Source of the DNA: a virus
Virus record (IMG/VR): IMGVR_UViG_3300035181_002074
Location: 96,613-160,612 of that record
Direction: 5' to 3' (one strand)
DNA length: 64,000 nucleotides
The notes under the pieces are model-generated. The model did not search any database, was not told where the DNA came from, and saw nothing but the letters and a program-made list of their open reading frames with translations. Made by a program: the position numbers and the translations under genes. How positions within the stretch are numbered: the first letter of the stretch is position 1; every line of letters begins with the position of its first letter. Positions 1,608 through 37,976 of the stretch are shown one piece after another.

Positions 1608-3587
1608 ATGAAAATATACGGAATAGGCGCCAGTCAAGCCATTGATTCTTCAGGGGAAATCTTAATGATCGACGGTGTCGATCTATCCGATGTTCATGCT
1701 GGAAAAGCCTTCTTCAATTGGGAGCACAGTAACGATGGCGCCGATACCTGCGTCGGAAGCCTGACTTTTGCCAAAAAAATCTATTCTGAAAAAGACTGTG
1801 AAAATCCAAAACAATTAGAATGCTGGAATGAAACCCTTTTACCAATGATTTACATTGAAGGGGTTCTCTTTGATAAAGAAGGACATGTTGGGGCAATTTG
1901 CTTGGCCGCTATGTTTCGTTCATTTGTAGCCAGAAATCAAAAAATTGAAATCGGTTCTTCCATTGAAGGTTCTACCATGGAACGTGGAAAAGGCGAAGAG
2001 CACCATGTTCTTAAAAGAACTGTAGCCCGCCGTTGGGCAATTACCCTCAGACCGTGTAACAAGCAATGTTTCCTTAAGGTATTGGCAGACGATACTGCTG
2101 ATGTAATGAAATCGGAAATCGACTGGGATTCTATCAGTCATGATCGTGCCCCAAAACATGGATTCATCGAAATCGACGACCCAATCGAAGATATTTACCA
2201 CACTATTAATGAATTAAATAAAACCCTAACAGCTGGATCGTCTAATGTTGCACCAAGTCAAATGGTTGGCGGATCTGCACTTACCCGTGAAAATCTAGTA
2301 CCTAAAATGCAAAACGTTGGGATGCAAACTAGACTGAAAGCATCATTCAAGCGTTGGAATAAAAAGAAACCACTTAAGGAGCACCTTAAATCTGAGCTTG
2401 AAGATGTATCAGAGGAGTATATAGATAACTTCGCTAAACTCGCTGATGAACTCCATATTAAGAAATCTGAAGAATCAATGCATACTTGGCAACAAGTTTG
2501 GAATAATATGAAAGATTTCCATACTGGTTCAGTTAATGAAAAAGATGCACCCCATATGCACAAAGATGCGCAAAAATATGAGCATTATAAACTTAGAAAA
2601 ATCCCACTATCAAGTTTACATCATGGATCTGATACGCCCGATAAACCATTAGATCGCGAAGATGAAGCGCATGCACATCATTACGCTAAATTAGATACCC
2701 AAGCGCCACCAATCACTCTGCACCCAAAAGAAACTGGTTACCATATCGTAGATGGTCGTCATCGTGCTAGAGCTGCATACCTGAGAGGCGACAAAGATAT
2801 TCTAGCTTACGTTGGTACTCCTATTCAAGCATTCACTAAATCTGAATCCCCTATTCGTATAGACCAGTCAATTGGTAATGATCGCGCAAATGCAGACCAG
2901 AAAGCTTTAATTGCAGGTATAGTTGTGCCAGCCAATGGCGGACAAAATATTCAAGTCATGAATGATTACGGCCAATCATCCCATATCAAGCCTTCTGCCC
3001 TGACCGAATCAGGTGGAGAAACCGCTAAAAATGCTTCTGCATATTATGCTGCAGCAAAAGATTTTTTCGACTTGGGCGAGCATGTTCCAGTATCAGCCTA
3101 TTTTGCACACCAGACGGCACCACAAGAAGGGGCACCATTATTTCTAGCCACCGAGCATGTATCTGGTAAGCCATCGCTCATGGGTTCATTGTTTGAGGAT
3201 TCTATCGGTAAAGATAAAAATCTTATGCATAAAATTGCATTAATGGATACTATTTTGGGAAATTCACACAGAAACCATGGTAATATTATATTGGGAGATA
3301 CACCAAAGCTGATTGACAACGAACACGCTTTCGAATATAAACAAAAACCAGCGTTTCACATCAATCAATCCGGTGCCGACATTATTTCCGAAGATGTTCG
3401 TAATTGGTTAACTAGTAAGGATGCCAAGAAATTGGCTGGCTTGCTTGCATCACATAGAATCGGTATAGACCGTATTAAGAAAGCTATTTTTGCATTGAAG
3501 ACTGCACAAAAAATGAATCATCATCCGATAGGTACCATTTTAGAGAACGTCCACTTTGTGGAACCTTCTCCAGAGGTAGCACAGTAA
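1608..3587 (+). CDS. Prohead maturation protease fused to a capsid-arm copy, a ParB-like domain and a PI3/4-kinase/HipA-like pseudokinase
   Basis: N-terminal IYGIGAS..DSSGE, NWEH, SIEG, AITLRPCN (HK97/herpes-fold protease motifs). ParB-like PPITL..IVDGRHR..AA. Kinase-like DTILGNSHRNHGN..LIDNEHAF. Confidence 0.85.
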   Translation: MKIYGIGASQAIDSSGEILMIDGVDLSDVHAGKAFFNWEHSNDGADTCVGSLTFAKKIYSEKDCENPKQLECWNETLLPMIYIEGVLFDKEGHVGAICLAAMFRSFVARNQKIEIGSSIEGSTMERGKGEEHHVLKRTVARRWAITLRPCNKQCFLKVLADDTADVMKSEIDWDSISHDRAPKHGFIEIDDPIEDIYHTINELNKTLTAGSSNVAPSQMVGGSALTRENLVPKMQNVGMQTRLKASFKRWNKKKPLKEHLKSELEDVSEEYIDNFAKLADELHIKKSEESMHTWQQVWNNMKDFHTGSVNEKDAPHMHKDAQKYEHYKLRKIPLSSLHHGSDTPDKPLDREDEAHAHHYAKLDTQAPPITLHPKETGYHIVDGRHRARAAYLRGDKDILAYVGTPIQAFTKSESPIRIDQSIGNDRANADQKALIAGIVVPANGGQNIQVMNDYGQSSHIKPSALTESGGETAKNASAYYAAAKDFFDLGEHVPVSAYFAHQTAPQEGAPLFLATEHVSGKPSLMGSLFEDSIGKDKNLMHKIALMDTILGNSHRNHGNIILGDTPKLIDNEHAFEYKQKPAFHINQSGADIISEDVRNWLTSKDAKKLAGLLASHRIGIDRIKKAIFALKTAQKMNHHPIGTILENVHFVEPSPEVAQ

Positions 3588-14404: not shown

Positions 14405-14433
14405 TTGACTTGTCTTAATATTAATGGTATAAT
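14405..14433 (+). promoter_or_regulatory. sigma70-type promoter (probably leaderless)
   Basis: TTGACT-N17-TATAAT with TG extension; 6 nt between the -10 box and the ATG. Confidence 0.85.
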
Positions 14434-15319: not shown

Positions 15320-15811
15320 ATGGAAATTATCAAAGATCAAAACGGTTGGAAGTTAGGCAAGAAAGACAATGTTTTTTATCTAATCTGCCAAGATGGTGAA
15401 GAAATTCGCTATGGAACGTCTAAAGATAACGCCTTCCAGTGGTTTGATCGGGTCATAGAAAAAGGCTGGACACACCTAACTCGAAACTATTACACCGTCA
15501 CTGTGACCAACGGTAAGATTATTACTGGCAAACACCAAAACAATAGCGTAAGAAGCGATAAGCTCGATCAGTGGAGCAGCAGCGTGTATTTGACCGCAGA
15601 AGAGGCCAAAGCTGCGATTAGCTTGGTATTACCCAAAGCCAAAGAAAAGTTTGAAGCCTGTCAAAGTGCCTACTTAGCTCTGCACAAAGAAATGGGGTTC
15701 TCTTCTGGTTGTAATTATGATGGCGACACCCATGGCATCTATAATGAATATGAATATATTTCGTTTCAGATGGATGGATTTCATTTCGAGTTTCCCCTAA
15801 ATTGTTCTTGA
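15320..15811 (+). CDS. Hypothetical early protein
   Basis: 163 aa, GAGG RBS, own promoter. Confidence 0.7.
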   Translation: MEIIKDQNGWKLGKKDNVFYLICQDGEEIRYGTSKDNAFQWFDRVIEKGWTHLTRNYYTVTVTNGKIITGKHQNNSVRSDKLDQWSSSVYLTAEEAKAAISLVLPKAKEKFEACQSAYLALHKEMGFSSGCNYDGDTHGIYNEYEYISFQMDGFHFEFPLNCS

Positions 15812-15836
15812 CTTCTTCCAAAGAAAGGTGTAAGAT
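15808..15836 (+). promoter_or_regulatory. sigma70-type promoter
   Basis: TTGACT-N17-TAAGAT; ATG (15843) after a 6-nt gap. Confidence 0.7.
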
Positions 15837-15964
15837 TTATATATGAGTGATATAGACAGTCCATTTTGGGATATTTTGTTTGATAATAACCAGTTCTTTT
15901 TTTGCCACGATCCAATTGGTGAAAACGGTAATAGCTATCCGATGCTAGCAGTAGGAGATTGTTA

Positions 15965-16408
15965 ATGACCCCAAAACAACTTAAATTAATCTTAGACCAG
16001 CACCTTTTATGGTTACAAACTGACCCGAAGGGCATCCGTGCCAACCTTAGTGGAGCCGACCTTCGTGTAGCCAACCTTAGTGGAGCCGACCTTCGTGGAG
16101 CCAACCTTAGTGTAGCCGACCTTCGTGGAGCCAACCTTAGTGGAGCCCACCTTCGTGGAGCCCACCTTAGTGGAGCCAACCTTAGTGGAGCCAACCTTAG
16201 TGGAGCCCACCTTCGTGGAGCCCACCTTAGTGGAGCCCACCTTAGTGGAGCCATAGGCATCCAAGTTTTTTGTTTGATGCAAAACGCAAAAACCTACGAT
16301 TTATCCAAACAATATATTAAAATCGAATATTGTCAATATTATTCGGCTAAAAATCTGGTAAATATCAACAAAGTTTACAATGTTAGTGTAGTGGAGGAAG
16401 TAATATAA
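15965..16408 (+). CDS. Pentapeptide repeat protein
   Basis: 14 x A(N/D/H)L(S/R)(G/V), preceded by ILDQHLLWL...G.RA. Confidence 0.9.
16040..16249 (+). repeat. 15-bp tandem repeat x14 (coding)
   Basis: Units of the form GCC(A/G/C)ACCTT(A/C)GTG(G/T)A. Confidence 0.95.
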
Positions 16409-30039: not shown

Positions 30040-30957
30040 ATGCCCAGTCATAAACTCAAAGTATTTGATTTGTTTAGCGGCATTGGTGGGTTTTCCAAAG
30101 GTTTAGAGCAAACCGGTTTATTTGAAACAGTTGGTTTTTGTGAAATTGAGCCATATTGCCAACAAGTCATCAAGAAGCATTGGCCACACGTCAAGATCTT
30201 TGACGATATCAAATCTTTATCTAACAAAACTCCAGAACTTTCAGGTATAGATGTTTTATGCGGTGGATTTCCATGTCAAGATATCTCAATCGCGGGTAAA
30301 GGTAAAGGCATAACCGGTGAAAGATCTGGATTATGGCAAGAATACAAGAGGGTAATTAATGAAGTAAGACCAAAATACGCAATTATTGAAAACGTCAGCG
30401 CACTCCTTGGCAGAGGACTTGAAACAGTCTTACAAGACCTTGCCGAAATCGGGTACGATGCGACTTACACGACCTTTGACAGCCAATTCTTCGGAGTCCC
30501 ACAACGTAGACGTAGAGTGTACATTCTCGCAGTCCGCGATGGAATCTTGCCCGAATCCGATATCTTCGAGCTTGGAAAACGTGATAGTGAACAACTCGGA
30601 CGAGAAATGGCAGCTATCAAAGAAGGCAGCGAGTGGAATTTTACGCAGAGAGATAGAAAGCAATATTCCTTTGCCTATTTTACTCGCCAACGCTCTGATC
30701 AGTATTCGTGCTGCGGAGTAAGCGGCACTTTAGCAAAAAGAGACTATAAAAGTTATACTGATCTGGTAGTGGATAATCATGGAGTACGCAGAGTGACACC
30801 ACAAGAAAGAATGCTTTTACAGGGGCTTCCGGCTGATTGGCTAGATGGGTGCGGATTAACGAATATGCAAATGTTTTTATGTAATGGAATGACCGTTCCT
30901 GTGGTATCATATATAGGGAATCGTTTATATGAATACAATCAAACAGCTCGAATTTAA
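30040..30957 (+). CDS. DNA cytosine-5 methyltransferase
   Basis: DLFSGIGG, GGFPCQD, ENV, PQRRRR, RLQG-like MLLQGLP, CNGMTVP. Confidence 0.95.
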   Translation: MPSHKLKVFDLFSGIGGFSKGLEQTGLFETVGFCEIEPYCQQVIKKHWPHVKIFDDIKSLSNKTPELSGIDVLCGGFPCQDISIAGKGKGITGERSGLWQEYKRVINEVRPKYAIIENVSALLGRGLETVLQDLAEIGYDATYTTFDSQFFGVPQRRRRVYILAVRDGILPESDIFELGKRDSEQLGREMAAIKEGSEWNFTQRDRKQYSFAYFTRQRSDQYSCCGVSGTLAKRDYKSYTDLVVDNHGVRRVTPQERMLLQGLPADWLDGCGLTNMQMFLCNGMTVPVVSYIGNRLYEYNQTARI

Positions 30958-32640: not shown

Positions 32641-32650
32641 CCTAATATTT
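32641..32650 (+). promoter_or_regulatory. Putative late promoter CCTAATATTT
   Basis: Exact motif 8 nt before ATG 32659. Confidence 0.75.
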
Positions 32651-32658
32651 GATGTAAT

Positions 32659-33696
32659 ATGGCGATTCTAGCGACCGACATTCTAATAAAAACAGCCATG
32701 GAAGGCGCCTTAGCTGATATGCGTCGTAACGAATATCTTCTCGATGACTGCTTTGGCGGTCTAGTGGATGATGTTCTTTCTAAAGCGGAATTTGGTACCA
32801 AGGAATTAAATCAAGCTAAAAACTTCATTATAAACAATAATATACCAGTTTATCTCCCATATCGGGTGGACTCACCCTCTACCCCAGCACTCCTAATTAC
32901 CCGTTCCCAAGCTACGGAAGCCAACGACAGAGCTTCCTTAGCCGATGATGGTGAAGACCAAGCTTATGATCCAGCCAAGGCTGGCCAGCCATTGCACCGT
33001 ATTGTACCCCCATTTACGCCTACATTCTATGATGCTGTTCAGGGTATGGTTACTATGCCAAGCCCCCATACGACTTACCAAGTAGCTGCAGGCATGTTCT
33101 TGATGGCTAAAAATGGAAGATCATATCAAATTACCCAAATCTTGGATGATGTGACGTTTTTAATCGCTGCAAACATTAACGAAGATTTCACCGGTTGCTA
33201 TATTGTTCCAGAAACCAAGACTTGGCTAGCGCACAGGGAAAACCTTTTCTTTAGCGAAGGCTGGACTATCACGGTAATGGCATCAGGTGAGCCAATTTTC
33301 GCTGAGTGGTTGCGCCAATTAGTAATTTACTGTTTAAGCCGCTACAGGGAAGCTTATCTAGAAGCAAGAGGATTCGAAATATCTTCTATGCAAGCAGGTC
33401 CAGTTTATTTAGACCCGTCATTTGAAGGAACCAAAGTATTTGCCGCTAAAATTACCTTAAGCGGCACAGTGCCAGCAACTTGGATTAAGTATATTAGTCC
33501 AGTATTTGCGAAAGTTGAAGGCGGAATTAAGATTTTGGAAATGCCTAAAACTCCTGAATATTATATGGATCAAGTAGCTAAGCAAGGATGGTCATCAGTA
33601 AATGATAACATCGATTTACTTGGTCAAGACGAGTCCGACTCCCAAACTATCGGTTCCGCAGACGATGATTATTTATTAGGAACTACCGATGAATAA
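32659..33696 (+). CDS. Probable tail terminator / tail completion protein
   Basis: Acidic structural-type protein; position between neck and sheath genes. Confidence 0.55.
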   Translation: MAILATDILIKTAMEGALADMRRNEYLLDDCFGGLVDDVLSKAEFGTKELNQAKNFIINNNIPVYLPYRVDSPSTPALLITRSQATEANDRASLADDGEDQAYDPAKAGQPLHRIVPPFTPTFYDAVQGMVTMPSPHTTYQVAAGMFLMAKNGRSYQITQILDDVTFLIAANINEDFTGCYIVPETKTWLAHRENLFFSEGWTITVMASGEPIFAEWLRQLVIYCLSRYREAYLEARGFEISSMQAGPVYLDPSFEGTKVFAAKITLSGTVPATWIKYISPVFAKVEGGIKILEMPKTPEYYMDQVAKQGWSSVNDNIDLLGQDESDSQTIGSADDDYLLGTTDE

Positions 33697-36600
33697 TATT
33701 ACCCCGCCGCCAGCAAAAGCTGGGGACACATCACCAGATGGACGCATGACAGCAATCAACCATAAAGATTTAGGTATAGTCTGGGACGCATCTCCGGCTC
33801 ATAAACAGCAAATGGATTCCAATACGCTTAAAACTGCCAGATCTTGGTTACAGACTCAACCTGTTGAGAATCATCCAGTCTTAAAAGCCTTTATTAATCA
33901 AACGCTAACTAGTCCTAATCGTCATTTACGCTATGGTTCAGATATTCAAAATGGTCCAGAAGTAGTTAGGCAGCGCCATATTCATCAAATGATCACTAAT
34001 CATCCAGATTCCAAGCTGATGGTGCATAATCCAAATTCGTTGAGTTTATACGTTAACAGGCACGGTCGAGATAAAAAAATATCACATTTCCAGTTTAACT
34101 TACAAAATAATGTTGCAAAATCTGAAACGTTGTGTTATAATAATGAGTATGGAACCTACACAGACGAATTCTGTAATCGATTTAAGTACACTATTGGCGA
34201 TGACGGAAAACTTGCCGAAAGCGGAATGGGACGCTATTTGGGCAAGAACGAACATGGGGACGATTATTACGAAAGCAGAGATTATGAATCTGACCCTAGT
34301 CGAATTCAGTCTGTTCTTGAACTCCTACGATACAGCCGCTTGTTTAGAAGCACCGGGCAGAGTAGCGATGCAGGAAGTGATGGATCACTTCAACGTAGTG
34401 AACCATTGTTATTAGCAGACCAGCTAGCTAAGCATTTTTTAGGTAAAGGCTCTTTACAGAGAAGAAATCCTTTTAATCCGAATTCGATTCCAGATACCGA
34501 ACGAAAGGCTGTGGAAGCCTGGACTAGTGGTTTTGCAATATCACCAGATAAAATCCTAGCAGCCCCGAAAGAAGCAATAGATCGTGGTGTGCATAAATTA
34601 CACGGCAGAACATCCGTCCGAAAAAACCCAGCCACCGGTGAGCGTGAATTTTTATTACACAGGGGAATGAGACCTAGCCAGTCTGCAGATTTTCAAAATG
34701 GTGGCGCAATGCGTAATACTTCTTGGACACCATCATATGAAGCCGCCAAAGGTTTTGCATCTGATTATTTACGAGAAGAGCAAGATGATACTGATTGGGT
34801 TAAACAATACCAAACGCAATATGGCAGAGACTTAGATCTATCTAAGCCGCATATACATTCAGCATGGATTCCAGAATCAAAAATTTTACATATTCCAAAT
34901 ACTATTGGTCAAAAAGGACACGGCCATAGCGATGATCCAACTTGGGATAAAGATCAAAAGCCATCAAAAACACTTCGCTATCGCGAACATGAAGTGATCG
35001 TAACGCCCCATCAAATGGCAATTGAAAGTAATCCTGAAAAACATATTAAGTTGCCTCATACTGAAGGCTCATTACATGAGCGAATCAATTCACGTGCAAC
35101 TAACAAATCGGAATACTTTTCTAATAAACTAGCTCCTTTAGCGAAAATGTCTCGCCCCGTTTTGAGATTCCCAAAATTAGGCGTTGACCCGCGTTCCGAA
35201 CAAAATGTACAACAAATTGAAACAGGTAAACAAGCTGAAATGTATGGCCGCAAAATAACTGCGCATGCCATACCGGATACCACTAAGCCCAACGTTGGGT
35301 ATAAGTTAGATAACTGGGATAATTTGGTACCACATGACTTACCACCTACGAAACAAAGCTTACAACCACAACGAAATAAAGAAGCTAAACGCTTGGCGGG
35401 TAAATTTGGTTCAAGAGTTTTAGGGACTAACGTTCAATCTACAACTTCGGATACAACCAGAAAACCAAAATCTTTCCAAGCGGCATTAGGTGGTAAACTA
35501 CGATCTAAGTATGAAAGCTTTGATGATACTCATGCTGACCGTATGCAAGAGCACTTTACAAAAAAACGCGACGCATTAAGACAGCACAGCCAAAATCTGG
35601 ACAATTGGTGGAGTTCAAGACCCACCCGTGCCGCAGTGCATGCAGCTAATCCTGATTCTGCAACACCAGAAATGGATTTGATTAACGCAACTAATGCCCA
35701 TCGTAAAGAAAAACCAAAACGTCCAGTCGTAAGAGCCCCATCGAAGAAACGTATCGCGACAAATAAGCTCACCCCAGATCAACAAGCTTTACGCGGTAAA
35801 ACAGTTGATAGTACTATTGAGCATGAAGCAGCTCACGGAGTATTTGACCAGATTGAGCAAAAGCATGGTAAACAAGCGATGTTCAAAGCTCGCAAGCACA
35901 TCTTAGATGCATTTGATCACGATTCATATAGCACTTTGTCTCGTTTTATTATTAGTCGTAATTATAATCCAAAATCAGAATCCTTCCCAGAAGAAATATT
36001 AACGCATGCTAGAGATATTTTAGTTAATCCGACCAAGCGCACCGATTTCATGAATAAGCTTCCAGCTACTATGACCCCAGAGCAAAAACAAATGGTGGTA
36101 AGTAAAATTAAAAAACAATGGGAAGAAGCTTACCGTCGTAGCCAAAACTTAAAGCCAGAAGATATCGTAAATAAATCTGAAGATCTAAATAAAGCATTAT
36201 CACCCGATGAATTAAAGTCACAAGGATACTCCTTTAAAATATTAAACCCGAATAAAAGCAGATCTAGTTATTTAATGCGAGCTTACCATAATAACAAACC
36301 TGTTGGACATATGATGTATAGTGGTCGAGCATTCAGTGTTCCCGATAATGAAAATATGGCAGATCGTTCCCATAAAAACGGCTACCATGATGTTTCGAAT
36401 TCCAATCTTGGGGAAGCACATCGCGGCAAAGGCATTTATCAACACATGCTGAACCTCGGTTCAGAACATGTCAAAAGTTTAGGTTCTAAAGGTCTAATGT
36501 CTTCTGGCTACCAAAGAAGTTCGTCCGCAACGAGAGCATGGGATAAGACAGCTACCCATTCATCGGTAGTTACACCGAAAGATGTTGGTGTCGTTAGTCC

Positions 36601-37438
36601 AGACGTGATGTCCCCTGAGTGGAACCAAGTTTTTGATCCCAAAAAACGTAAAAACGCCGACTATTTTAAATCTGAACCTCTTATGAAACCGTGGGCATCA
36701 CAAGCTCAAGCTGCATGGGGACATTCAGAAGCCGGTAAAGAAGCATTAGGTGCCGAAGGTGTTAAACATTGGGATGCAGCTACTCACGGGAAACATTTAC
36801 CTAAAAGAGTTAAAAAGGATGAGCCTTTAATGAAACCTAAATCTTTAAAACAAAAATGGTATGACAAATCCCTGAAAGAAAAGAAACAGGTCGTACAGGA
36901 AAAAATGAGACAAGGGCCAGCTTTACCACCATTGAAAGACTCACTTAAGCAAGCAATGGATGTTTTCAAAAAGCCTGCACCAAAAGAAGAAGTTAAAAAA
37001 GAAGAACTAGCTAAGATGCCTGTTGTGTTCAGCGGCACCAAGAAGAAACCTTTTACAACCATCCAAAGAATGCAGAATAAAGAAGGTCAAGGCCCGTATG
37101 TCAGTGGCGGAGATATTCCAGAACTGGAAGAACATGGAGATTCTAATGCATCGTGGGATGTCGCAGAAAGAACGCCGAATCCTATTGACGATGAAGGATT
37201 CACATCGGCAGATCAGAAAAGACTTGGACAGGTACCAACGCCAAAAACCCCTAATGTTAAATTCGGTTTCCATAAACCAGAACATGCCAAAAATTGGTTT
37301 TCACCAGAAGAAACTGAAGCCCTAGCCCAACATGGATTCACATTGCAGCCAGTTAAAGCAGCTAAAGTATGGTCATCAGGTAAACAAGCCTTCTTTGAAG
37401 CATATAAAGGCAAAGCTAATAAGAAACCGAAAATCTAG
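33689..37438 (+). CDS. Polyvalent polyprotein: ADP-ribosyltransferase + HExxH zincin-like + GNAT + further modules
   Basis: LHRG/TSWT/EHEV (R-S-E ART); IEHEAAH; HRGKGIY..SSSATRAW (GNAT); modules delimited by K|SE motifs. Confidence 0.8.
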   Translation: MNNITPPPAKAGDTSPDGRMTAINHKDLGIVWDASPAHKQQMDSNTLKTARSWLQTQPVENHPVLKAFINQTLTSPNRHLRYGSDIQNGPEVVRQRHIHQMITNHPDSKLMVHNPNSLSLYVNRHGRDKKISHFQFNLQNNVAKSETLCYNNEYGTYTDEFCNRFKYTIGDDGKLAESGMGRYLGKNEHGDDYYESRDYESDPSRIQSVLELLRYSRLFRSTGQSSDAGSDGSLQRSEPLLLADQLAKHFLGKGSLQRRNPFNPNSIPDTERKAVEAWTSGFAISPDKILAAPKEAIDRGVHKLHGRTSVRKNPATGEREFLLHRGMRPSQSADFQNGGAMRNTSWTPSYEAAKGFASDYLREEQDDTDWVKQYQTQYGRDLDLSKPHIHSAWIPESKILHIPNTIGQKGHGHSDDPTWDKDQKPSKTLRYREHEVIVTPHQMAIESNPEKHIKLPHTEGSLHERINSRATNKSEYFSNKLAPLAKMSRPVLRFPKLGVDPRSEQNVQQIETGKQAEMYGRKITAHAIPDTTKPNVGYKLDNWDNLVPHDLPPTKQSLQPQRNKEAKRLAGKFGSRVLGTNVQSTTSDTTRKPKSFQAALGGKLRSKYESFDDTHADRMQEHFTKKRDALRQHSQNLDNWWSSRPTRAAVHAANPDSATPEMDLINATNAHRKEKPKRPVVRAPSKKRIATNKLTPDQQALRGKTVDSTIEHEAAHGVFDQIEQKHGKQAMFKARKHILDAFDHDSYSTLSRFIISRNYNPKSESFPEEILTHARDILVNPTKRTDFMNKLPATMTPEQKQMVVSKIKKQWEEAYRRSQNLKPEDIVNKSEDLNKALSPDELKSQGYSFKILNPNKSRSSYLMRAYHNNKPVGHMMYSGRAFSVPDNENMADRSHKNGYHDVSNSNLGEAHRGKGIYQHMLNLGSEHVKSLGSKGLMSSGYQRSSSATRAWDKTATHSSVVTPKDVGVVSPDVMSPEWNQVFDPKKRKNADYFKSEPLMKPWASQAQAAWGHSEAGKEALGAEGVKHWDAATHGKHLPKRVKKDEPLMKPKSLKQKWYDKSLKEKKQVVQEKMRQGPALPPLKDSLKQAMDVFKKPAPKEEVKKEELAKMPVVFSGTKKKPFTTIQRMQNKEGQGPYVSGGDIPELEEHGDSNASWDVAERTPNPIDDEGFTSADQKRLGQVPTPKTPNVKFGFHKPEHAKNWFSPEETEALAQHGFTLQPVKAAKVWSSGKQAFFEAYKGKANKKPKI
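34113..34141 (+). promoter_or_regulatory. Intragenic sigma70-type promoter
   Basis: TTGCAA-N17-TATAAT with TG extension, inside the polyprotein gene. Confidence 0.7.
34149..34415 (+). CDS. Nested out-of-frame gene (88 aa)
   Basis: ATG 7 nt after the TATAAT; protein-like amphipathic sequence; +1 frame relative to 33689. Confidence 0.55.
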   Translation: MEPTQTNSVIDLSTLLAMTENLPKAEWDAIWARTNMGTIITKAEIMNLTLVEFSLFLNSYDTAACLEAPGRVAMQEVMDHFNVVNHCY

Positions 37439-37702
37439 CTATCCGTTCATTTGCTCCAAAAATTGAATATCCGACATGTGGGTATATTTATCAAATAGAC
37501 GATCGACTCTAGATGCTTTATCTAATAGCATAAAACAATCAAAAAAGCTTCCTACCGTTAAACTGAAATAAGGCGAGGGATCGTCAGGGAAGAAACATTT
37601 GACTTCACCCGTAACGCAGCATTCATCTAATTCATCTTTCGTCCAGCCATCTGTCAAGTAAAACCGTAAAGCCAGATTAGAGCTTCTAATTACTTTTTTC
37701 AT
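37439..37702 (-). CDS. Hypothetical early protein
   Basis: 87 aa; ATGA overlap. Confidence 0.6.
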   Translation of the reverse strand: MKKVIRSSNLALRFYLTDGWTKDELDECCVTGEVKCFFPDDPSPYFSLTVGSFFDCFMLLDKASRVDRLFDKYTHMSDIQFLEQMNG

Positions 37703-37941
37703 TTACCGGATACCATCCTGTACGTGAACCGGTCATCTCTATCCACTGGATAAACATAGAAAAAATAATTAGGATTATCTTCCATGGTTATGTATACATA
37801 ATCTTTAACGAAACAATGACGCCTTGCTTCTGAAATCATGTCATACATATACTGCGGGATAGGTTTTTCATAAAATCCTTTTACACGTTGAGGATAAGTC
37901 ACGAGCGCAAAATACAGGAAATCTTCTTGGAGTTTGGTCAC
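37699..37941 (-). CDS. Hypothetical early protein
   Basis: 80 aa; GTG 6 nt after the -10 box. Confidence 0.6.
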   Translation of the reverse strand: MTKLQEDFLYFALVTYPQRVKGFYEKPIPQYMYDMISEARRHCFVKDYVYITMEDNPNYFFYVYPVDRDDRFTYRMVSGK

Positions 37942-37947
37942 CCCTAT

Positions 37948-37976
37948 AACCTATCATCATTAACCTTTTTTGTCAA
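37948..37976 (-). promoter_or_regulatory. sigma70-type promoter
   Basis: TTGACA-N17-TAGGTT. Confidence 0.65.

Follow-up and report, generated by a model that had tools for sequence, protein, structure and literature searches.

Locus and genomic setting

The window, by which is meant the whole stretch of 64,000 nucleotides analyzed, is the last 64 kb of a phage record of 160,612 bases. The phage is kin to Myxococcus phage Mx1 (OR576727), which is the sole close cultured match to its major capsid protein (49% identical) and has the same order of head genes. The features of the locus, in which a small gene lies out of frame inside a long one, are as follows (a slash within a motif marks a predicted cleavage position).

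1608-3587: ORF beginning with a head-protease homologue (39% to the putative prohead protease of Mx1)
32641..32650, + strand: putative late-promoter motif CCTAATATTT, ahead of the operon made up of 32659-33696 and 33689-37438
33689..37438, + strand: polyprotein (polyvalent-type) gene, 1249 aa, with domain 1, spacer, ART-like, HExxH, GNAT-like and C-terminal modules
33689..34120, + strand: domain 1 (aa 1-144), an unnamed basic domain and putative packaged effector enzyme, ending at VAK/SE
34113..34141, + strand: sigma70-type promoter TTGCAA-N17-(TGn)TATAAT, within codons of the cleavage site and spacer
34121..34447, + strand: enlarged spacer between domains (aa 145-253 of the polyprotein), running from K/SE to LGK/GS
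34149..34415, + strand: nested +1-frame gene for an acidic protein of 88 aa (pI 4.4, six helices), the probable cognate inhibitor of domain 1
34448..35023, + strand: ART-like domain, starting after LGK/, with invariant R, S-W-T and E-x-E in an alignment of 12

Fifty homologous modular proteins were collected, which are large and domain-shuffled and carry GNAT, NUDIX, ParB and kinase modules. As in polyvalent proteins, several unrelated enzyme domains are joined in one phage protein, encoded among virion genes and shuffled between relatives. The ART-like domain had no sequence match in Pfam or PDB. Domain 1 had no match in Pfam, PHROG, PDB or Atlas and none in Mx1, so the module is not directly open to study in that phage. 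Further downstream, in-frame ATGs at 36830 and 36905 (+ strand; residues 1048 and 1073) follow Shine-Dalgarno-like AAGGA and AGGA and are possible internal starts for the C-terminal modules.

The motif CCTAATATTT occurs in 15 exact copies in the genome, all on the + strand (0.27 expected), most of them directly preceding structural-region genes, and is found at the same position in a second phage. Because one copy lies just ahead of its operon, the polyprotein gene is called late. Next to several copies (41887 and 47625 of the window; ~35433 and ~59680 of the genome), the other strand carries an early promoter whose -35 box abuts the motif. Elsewhere in the window, 15781-16260 (- strand) encodes pentapeptide-like repeats, read as LAPLR on the minus strand, and is probably a plus-strand pentapeptide-repeat gene.

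Coding potential and selection in the +1 frame

The initial annotation proposed an 88-codon ORF opening at an ATG 7 nt past a -10 box, and such an ORF was found to start at 34149 and to end with TAG at 34413-34415. Other in-frame ATGs are present at 34110 and 34143, and a mechanical caller gives a product of 101 aa. Length alone is unremarkable, as the long genes of this genome contain four nested +1 ORFs of at least 88 aa. Coding potential was evaluated with a leave-one-gene-out Markov model, in which the likelihood of the annotated frame was compared with that of the +1 frame in 264-nt windows. The nested ORF was the lowest of 1260 windows, with a preference for frame 0 of 4 nats (median 66, sd 16), which upholds the earlier impression that the polyprotein frame here reads like off-frame sequence.

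The second phage, IMG/VR 3300050821_018050 (L003; L003 to L006 are the same virus and were counted once), shares the N-terminal domain and the promoter, and its ORF starts and stops at the same places and has the same length. The +1 products of the two phages align without gaps and are identical at 37 of 88 positions (42%), versus 23 of 88 (26%) for the polyprotein frame over the same DNA. The comparison of substitution rates in both frames, suggested as a check at the outset, gave a pN/pS of 0.46 in the +1 frame (dS was saturated) and 1.30 in the polyprotein frame; domain 1 in its own frame also has a pN/pS of 0.46. Conservation in the polyprotein frame is highest at the wobble position (57/88) and lowest at the first codon position (39/88; p = 0.01). 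A frame-0 pN/pS above 1 was considered as a sign of positive selection and rejected, since constraint in the +1 frame is expected to produce such a value in the overlapping frame. A third polyprotein (P0004), known only as protein, has the linker without gaps, and the best +1 reading that its sequence allows scores 218 for its fit to the family, against null maxima of 182, 164 and 203. Evidence for +1 selection on the 88-aa gene thus consists of one DNA pair and the indirect case of P0004.

AlphaFold, run with the two sequences, gave a six-helix model of the 88-aa protein with a pLDDT of 78 and a pTM of 0.71. The homologue search had a divided outcome: the ORF is kept in the second phage, while an exhaustive phmmer search of 1.84 billion called proteins found no homologue. 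There was likewise no match in Pfam, PHROGs, Atlas or cultured phages, and scans of viral and genome contigs, with single proteins and with patterns, found nothing beyond one phage. Fold searches returned only background (best Z 3.4; TM ≤0.44; E ≥1.6), which is not proof of a new fold.

A chance ORF behind a chance promoter, or an assembly error joining two genes, would be compatible with the occurrence of other nested ORFs of such length, with promoter-like matches at chance level and with the empty search of called proteins. Against it stand conservation and selection in the +1 frame, stop avoidance in both phages, and the fact that seven independent assemblies have read-through following domain 1; this reading is considered refuted, with a negligible residual probability. 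The gene is real and the frame under selection is the +1 frame, as the computational comparisons demonstrate: purifying selection acts in that frame only. The 88-codon ORF is almost certainly a genuine gene that gene finders have overlooked.

Putative embedded promoter

The elements TTGCAA-N17-TG-n-TATAAT, described earlier as overlapping the polyprotein codons for VAKSETLCYN, are present at 34113-34141. Such a match alone is not above chance (46 found, 48 expected). The second phage has TTGTAA-N17-TGgTATAAT, with the ATG likewise 7 nt later, and a Cys/Trp exchange in the polyprotein frame between the two phages keeps the TG of the extended -10. Twelve sites in the genome, including the nested one, combine TTG...-N17-TAnnnT with an ATG 6-7 nt on, versus none in eight shuffles, and it is because of this short distance after the -10 that the early genes of the phage appear to be leaderless. 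Early promoters with an ATG 6-7 nt past the -10 are found, for example, at 14405, 15808, 18166, 46763 and 59400 of the window, and likewise in the second phage.

Compared with the early consensus TTGAC-N17-TGnTAnnnT, the nested promoter matches in spacing, extended -10 and distance to the ATG and has a -35 box without GAC. Its matrix score is 8.2, versus 15-27 for the training sites, placing it at rank 57 of 321,160 and below all 15 of them; for these two reasons it is probably a weaker promoter. It is nonetheless probably functional. The proposal of an early transcription unit within a late gene is consistent with the leaderless early architecture, apart from a weaker -35, and with a late host gene. 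In the same part of the genome, a strong early-type promoter (matrix score 18.5) at 37976 (- strand) drives two small genes (37439-37941) that converge on the end of the polyprotein gene.

The further suggestion that the embedded promoter could drive early transcription of the ART region was not supported, as the ART-like domain has no in-frame start with a ribosome-binding site of its own. The promoter is unlikely to serve this domain because the first Shine-Dalgarno-like starts are those at residues 1048 and 1073, and because another domain follows the spacer in L003.

Spacer between predicted cleavage sites

Capsid proteins of SPO1/A511-like phages are processed after Lys. For Lys-specific head-protease cleavage in the present lineage, no citable paper was found. 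Cleavage motifs were counted in the proteins of the phage and occur at 3.6 per 1000 aa in the head region and at 0.4 in replication proteins, a roughly eightfold difference that is an upper estimate because the head set was picked by position and partly by motif content. Enrichment of the motif in head-region proteins and the presence of a protease gene, both seen here, are the sequence marks of prohead processing.

Of the sites earlier said to bracket the nested gene, VAK/SE upstream was retained, and LQR/SE or LAK/H downstream was replaced by LGK/GS (aa 251-254), where the downstream cut was set because the ART-like domain starts there throughout the family. The spacer from K/SE to LxK/G is 3-8 aa in most relatives and 107 aa here, the segment to be discarded (aa 145-253) having 109 aa. 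With K/SE and LGK/GS 107 aa apart instead of the usual 3-8, the nested gene occupies an enlarged spacer between probable head-protease sites, in agreement with its original placement in a linker. The spacer is probably excised by cleavage, with the cut sites assigned from motifs.

Over the nested gene the polyprotein frame contains 0 stops versus 6-7 expected (P = 2e-5 to 2e-4 in the two phages), as calculated from 24 and 22 junctions at which a T-ending codon would make a polyprotein stop. This pattern indicates that read-through is selected, the polyprotein frame being kept stop-free and not conserved as protein. The nested stop is formed by a Leu codon and the next base in six of the seven nested cases described below (by Ile in L010), and this Leu starts an LxK motif in five; in the window it lies nine codons ahead of LGK/GS. 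A dipeptide score for detecting off-frame linkers from protein alone had no power, and a single-sequence fold of the spacer with the ART-like domain was uninformative (pLDDT 33).

Domain 1 and linkage to small acidic partners

Nine copies of domain 1 are known, eight of which were aligned, with a ninth found in addition. Eight residues are invariant in the alignment of eight, including W32, H79, R94, R96, H97 and H125. In all eight copies for which DNA is available, domain 1 is followed by a small acidic gene, nested out of frame in seven and free-standing in one. Besides the window, L003 and L007-L011 have nested +1 ORFs behind domain 1. Those of L007-L009 have 48 codons, with a pN/pS of 0.17-0.64 in the +1 frame versus 1.4-3.1 in the polyprotein frame, and also display stop avoidance. 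L010 and L011 have nested ORFs of 52 and 42 codons with Shine-Dalgarno-like starts, including a perfect AGGAGG before the ATG in L011; these two were recognized from single sequences, by coding score, start signal and weaker stop avoidance. In L016 (P0019), which served as an out-of-sample test, domain 1 is the last, C-terminal module and is followed by a free-standing gene of 61 codons that is homologous to the nested ORFs of L007-L009 (hhalign 85%, E 6e-6).

Each of the eight partners has an acidic pI (4.0-5.5). Seven of the eight aligned copies of domain 1 are basic, and the remaining, neutral one goes with the partner that is least acidic. Homology between the 88-aa family, which consists of two DNA sequences, and the partners of 42-61 aa is weak or undetectable (hhalign 2-9%), so the partners may form one fast-evolving family or several. 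In the other lineages, the partner genes have Shine-Dalgarno-like starts and no sigma70 promoter, and early timing is therefore not general. At L007:1714 and L008:4135, 37 nt ahead of the nested 48-codon ORF and within domain 1 codons for P-N-I-S, there is a sequence close to the late motif, which may serve the partner gene of this lineage as a late promoter.

Among the loci scanned, well-supported nested ORFs lie directly after domain 1. This association assigns the nested gene to the upstream domain 1 and not to the ART domain, a point absent from the initial annotation, and nothing here ties the ART-like domain functionally to the nested gene. An early gene independent of its neighbors might instead have settled in a tolerant spacer, or its promoter might serve the ART region. 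The gene does have its own early-type promoter, small early genes of this genome lie dispersed between late ones, and the partners of other lineages show weak homology to it. This explanation is unlikely given that the well-supported cases all directly follow domain 1, whereas the domain after the spacer varies (ART-like here, 2H-like in L003) and the ART domain lacks a usable internal start; the structural prediction below also argues against it. From L003:5440 onward, the domain that replaces the ART-like one after the spacer is 2H-phosphoesterase-like (Pfam PF02834 on P0053).

A programmed +1 frameshift would fuse the nested frame to domain 1, in which case the nested ORF would not be translated alone. 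The +1 frame of the window is open upstream of the ATG (123 codons from stop to stop). In L003, however, a TAA at the -35 box closes it, and both phages keep the ATG 7 nt past the -10. No recognizable shift signal was seen, L011 has its perfect AGGAGG, and the homologue of the L007-L009 ORFs in L016 stands free. A frameshift is accordingly very improbable.

Predicted complex of domain 1 and the 88-aa protein

ESMFold2 was used to model domain 1 together with the 88-aa protein. The pair scored 0.82 (runs 0.00, 0.83 and 0.82) versus 0.00 for the best of three controls. Among reference pairs, 58 of 80 solved ones and 2 of 110 mismatched ones attained that mark, figures that apply only approximately to predictions with own alignments. 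One of the three runs gave 0.00; contacts agreed between runs to 0% or more, and the partner had a pLDDT of 65 or higher. The predicted interface covers five of the eight invariants of domain 1 (W32, R94, R96, H97 and H125) and, on the partner, the conserved stretches 35-41 and 57-65. Searches by sequence or fold turned up no solved complex similar to either chain, which makes a memorized complex less likely. The models make it probable that the 88-aa protein binds domain 1 over the likely active site, itself a prediction. For a gene unrelated to its neighbors, a complex score of 0.82 versus 0.00 would not be expected.

The 88-aa protein might also bind as part of a two-part enzyme, in the role of chaperone, activator or targeting subunit. 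Neither strict linkage nor predicted binding gives the sign of the effect, and the same genome appears to hold a methyltransferase with a nested subunit. The predicted interface, on the other hand, sits over invariant His and Arg residues, and acidic partners that can barely be aligned, next to a conserved domain 1, are the usual pattern for immunity proteins (PMC5576092). A helper role is thus improbable, and inhibition is the preferred reading.

Comparison with known systems

In phages with MuF toxins, a small ORF without known domains follows 89% of muf toxin genes and is presumed to encode an immunity protein (PMC5576092; PMC3482391). The present arrangement resembles these and other polymorphic toxin-immunity loci in that a head-associated effector domain is followed by a small ORF without known domains. 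It differs in that the effector is an N-terminal or internal module instead of the C-terminal tip, and in that the small gene lies out of frame inside a continuing polyprotein ORF and has its own promoter. No match to the MuF domain was found, and the polyprotein gene is more than 30 kb from the portal region.

With polyvalent proteins (PMC5512222), which include PBECR RNase modules, the polyprotein shares the form of a multi-domain late protein that is probably packaged and processed, here with ART-like, HExxH and GNAT-like modules among virion genes; a difference is the apparent processing at repeated Lys motifs. The words 'immunity protein', 'overlap' and 'linker' are absent from Iyer et al. 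2017 (PMC5512222). Domain 1 has the invariant His and Arg residues and no match to a PBECR or LPD model in Pfam or to a PDB sequence. A His-bearing helix followed by short predicted strands and a basic surface provides a lead, rather doubtful at this stage, to a BECR-type RNase.

Lambda Rz1 within Rz and Bacillus subtilis comS within srfAB are same-strand nested genes. Gene E within D of phiX174 is another (PMC8227390), and the beta chain of M.EcoHK31I, which completes alpha, is encoded in another frame of alpha (PMC2836561). In EcoHK31I and Rz/Rz1, as predicted here, the nested and host products bind each other. In the known cases the host frame over the overlap encodes mature protein, whereas here it apparently encodes a discarded spacer, and unlike in those cases the nested gene is probably the older occupant and carries a promoter of its own that belongs to another temporal class. 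In the window, a nested ORF at 30386-30721 (+ strand), inside a C5 methyltransferase gene (30040-30957), has the second-strongest +1 coding anomaly in 264-nt windows. Its end resembles the M.EcoHK31I beta chain, and it is presumably of a known kind. No paper on immunity genes nested in spacers of polyvalent proteins was found in a search outside which most subscription journals lay. The present case adds an embedded early promoter, an explanation by cleavage spacer, two unnamed families and a free-standing homologous state.

Proposed function, origin and implications

Taken as a whole, the model in which the 88-aa protein is the cognate partner of domain 1, most likely its inhibitor (immunity protein), is reasonably likely, and the narrower statement that the nested product inhibits a putatively toxic enzyme is only a little less so. 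By analogy, and from its conserved residues, charge and context, domain 1 is a putative toxin. The polyprotein would be transcribed from the late promoter, made late and packed into proheads, where the phage head protease would cut after Lys at xxK/SE and LxK/G, freeing domain 1, the ART-like domain and other modules while the spacer is discarded. After injection, host sigma70 RNA polymerase would read the embedded promoter to give a leaderless mRNA. The small acidic protein would then bind domain 1 over its conserved His/Arg patch and switch it off, shielding the infected cell from the injected copy, from that of superinfecting kin or from a late-made copy before packaging. Transcription start, timing, cleavage, toxicity and inhibition are the parts of this model that we infer.

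The arrangement may have originated when a pair of effector and small downstream gene was fused to the next module by read-through in another frame. The only price of such a fusion would be the loss of stop codons, as the peptide translated by read-through would be excised. Fusion is proposed because a free-standing homologous state exists in L016. The suggested direction, from free to nested, is to be read with a tree that has long branches and no root.

Tentatively, and with somewhat less assurance than the inhibitor model itself, the locus may represent new effector and inhibitor families, with excised spacers of virion polyproteins as free coding space. Toxin-immunity cassettes would be joined into a single packaged protein by read-through of the immunity gene, which would retain its promoter and serve as an early timer that turns off the injected enzyme. 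If the model is correct, phages can chain toxic modules in one packaged polyprotein and yet keep the antidote gene of each toxin. For gene finding, the rule would follow that wherever a long spacer comes after an effector domain, its +1 frame should be checked. The two unnamed families offer a small, clonable pair (144 aa and 88 aa), and the free-standing state together with several nested ones would make it possible to examine the origin of overlapping genes by fusion, as opposed to de novo overprinting.
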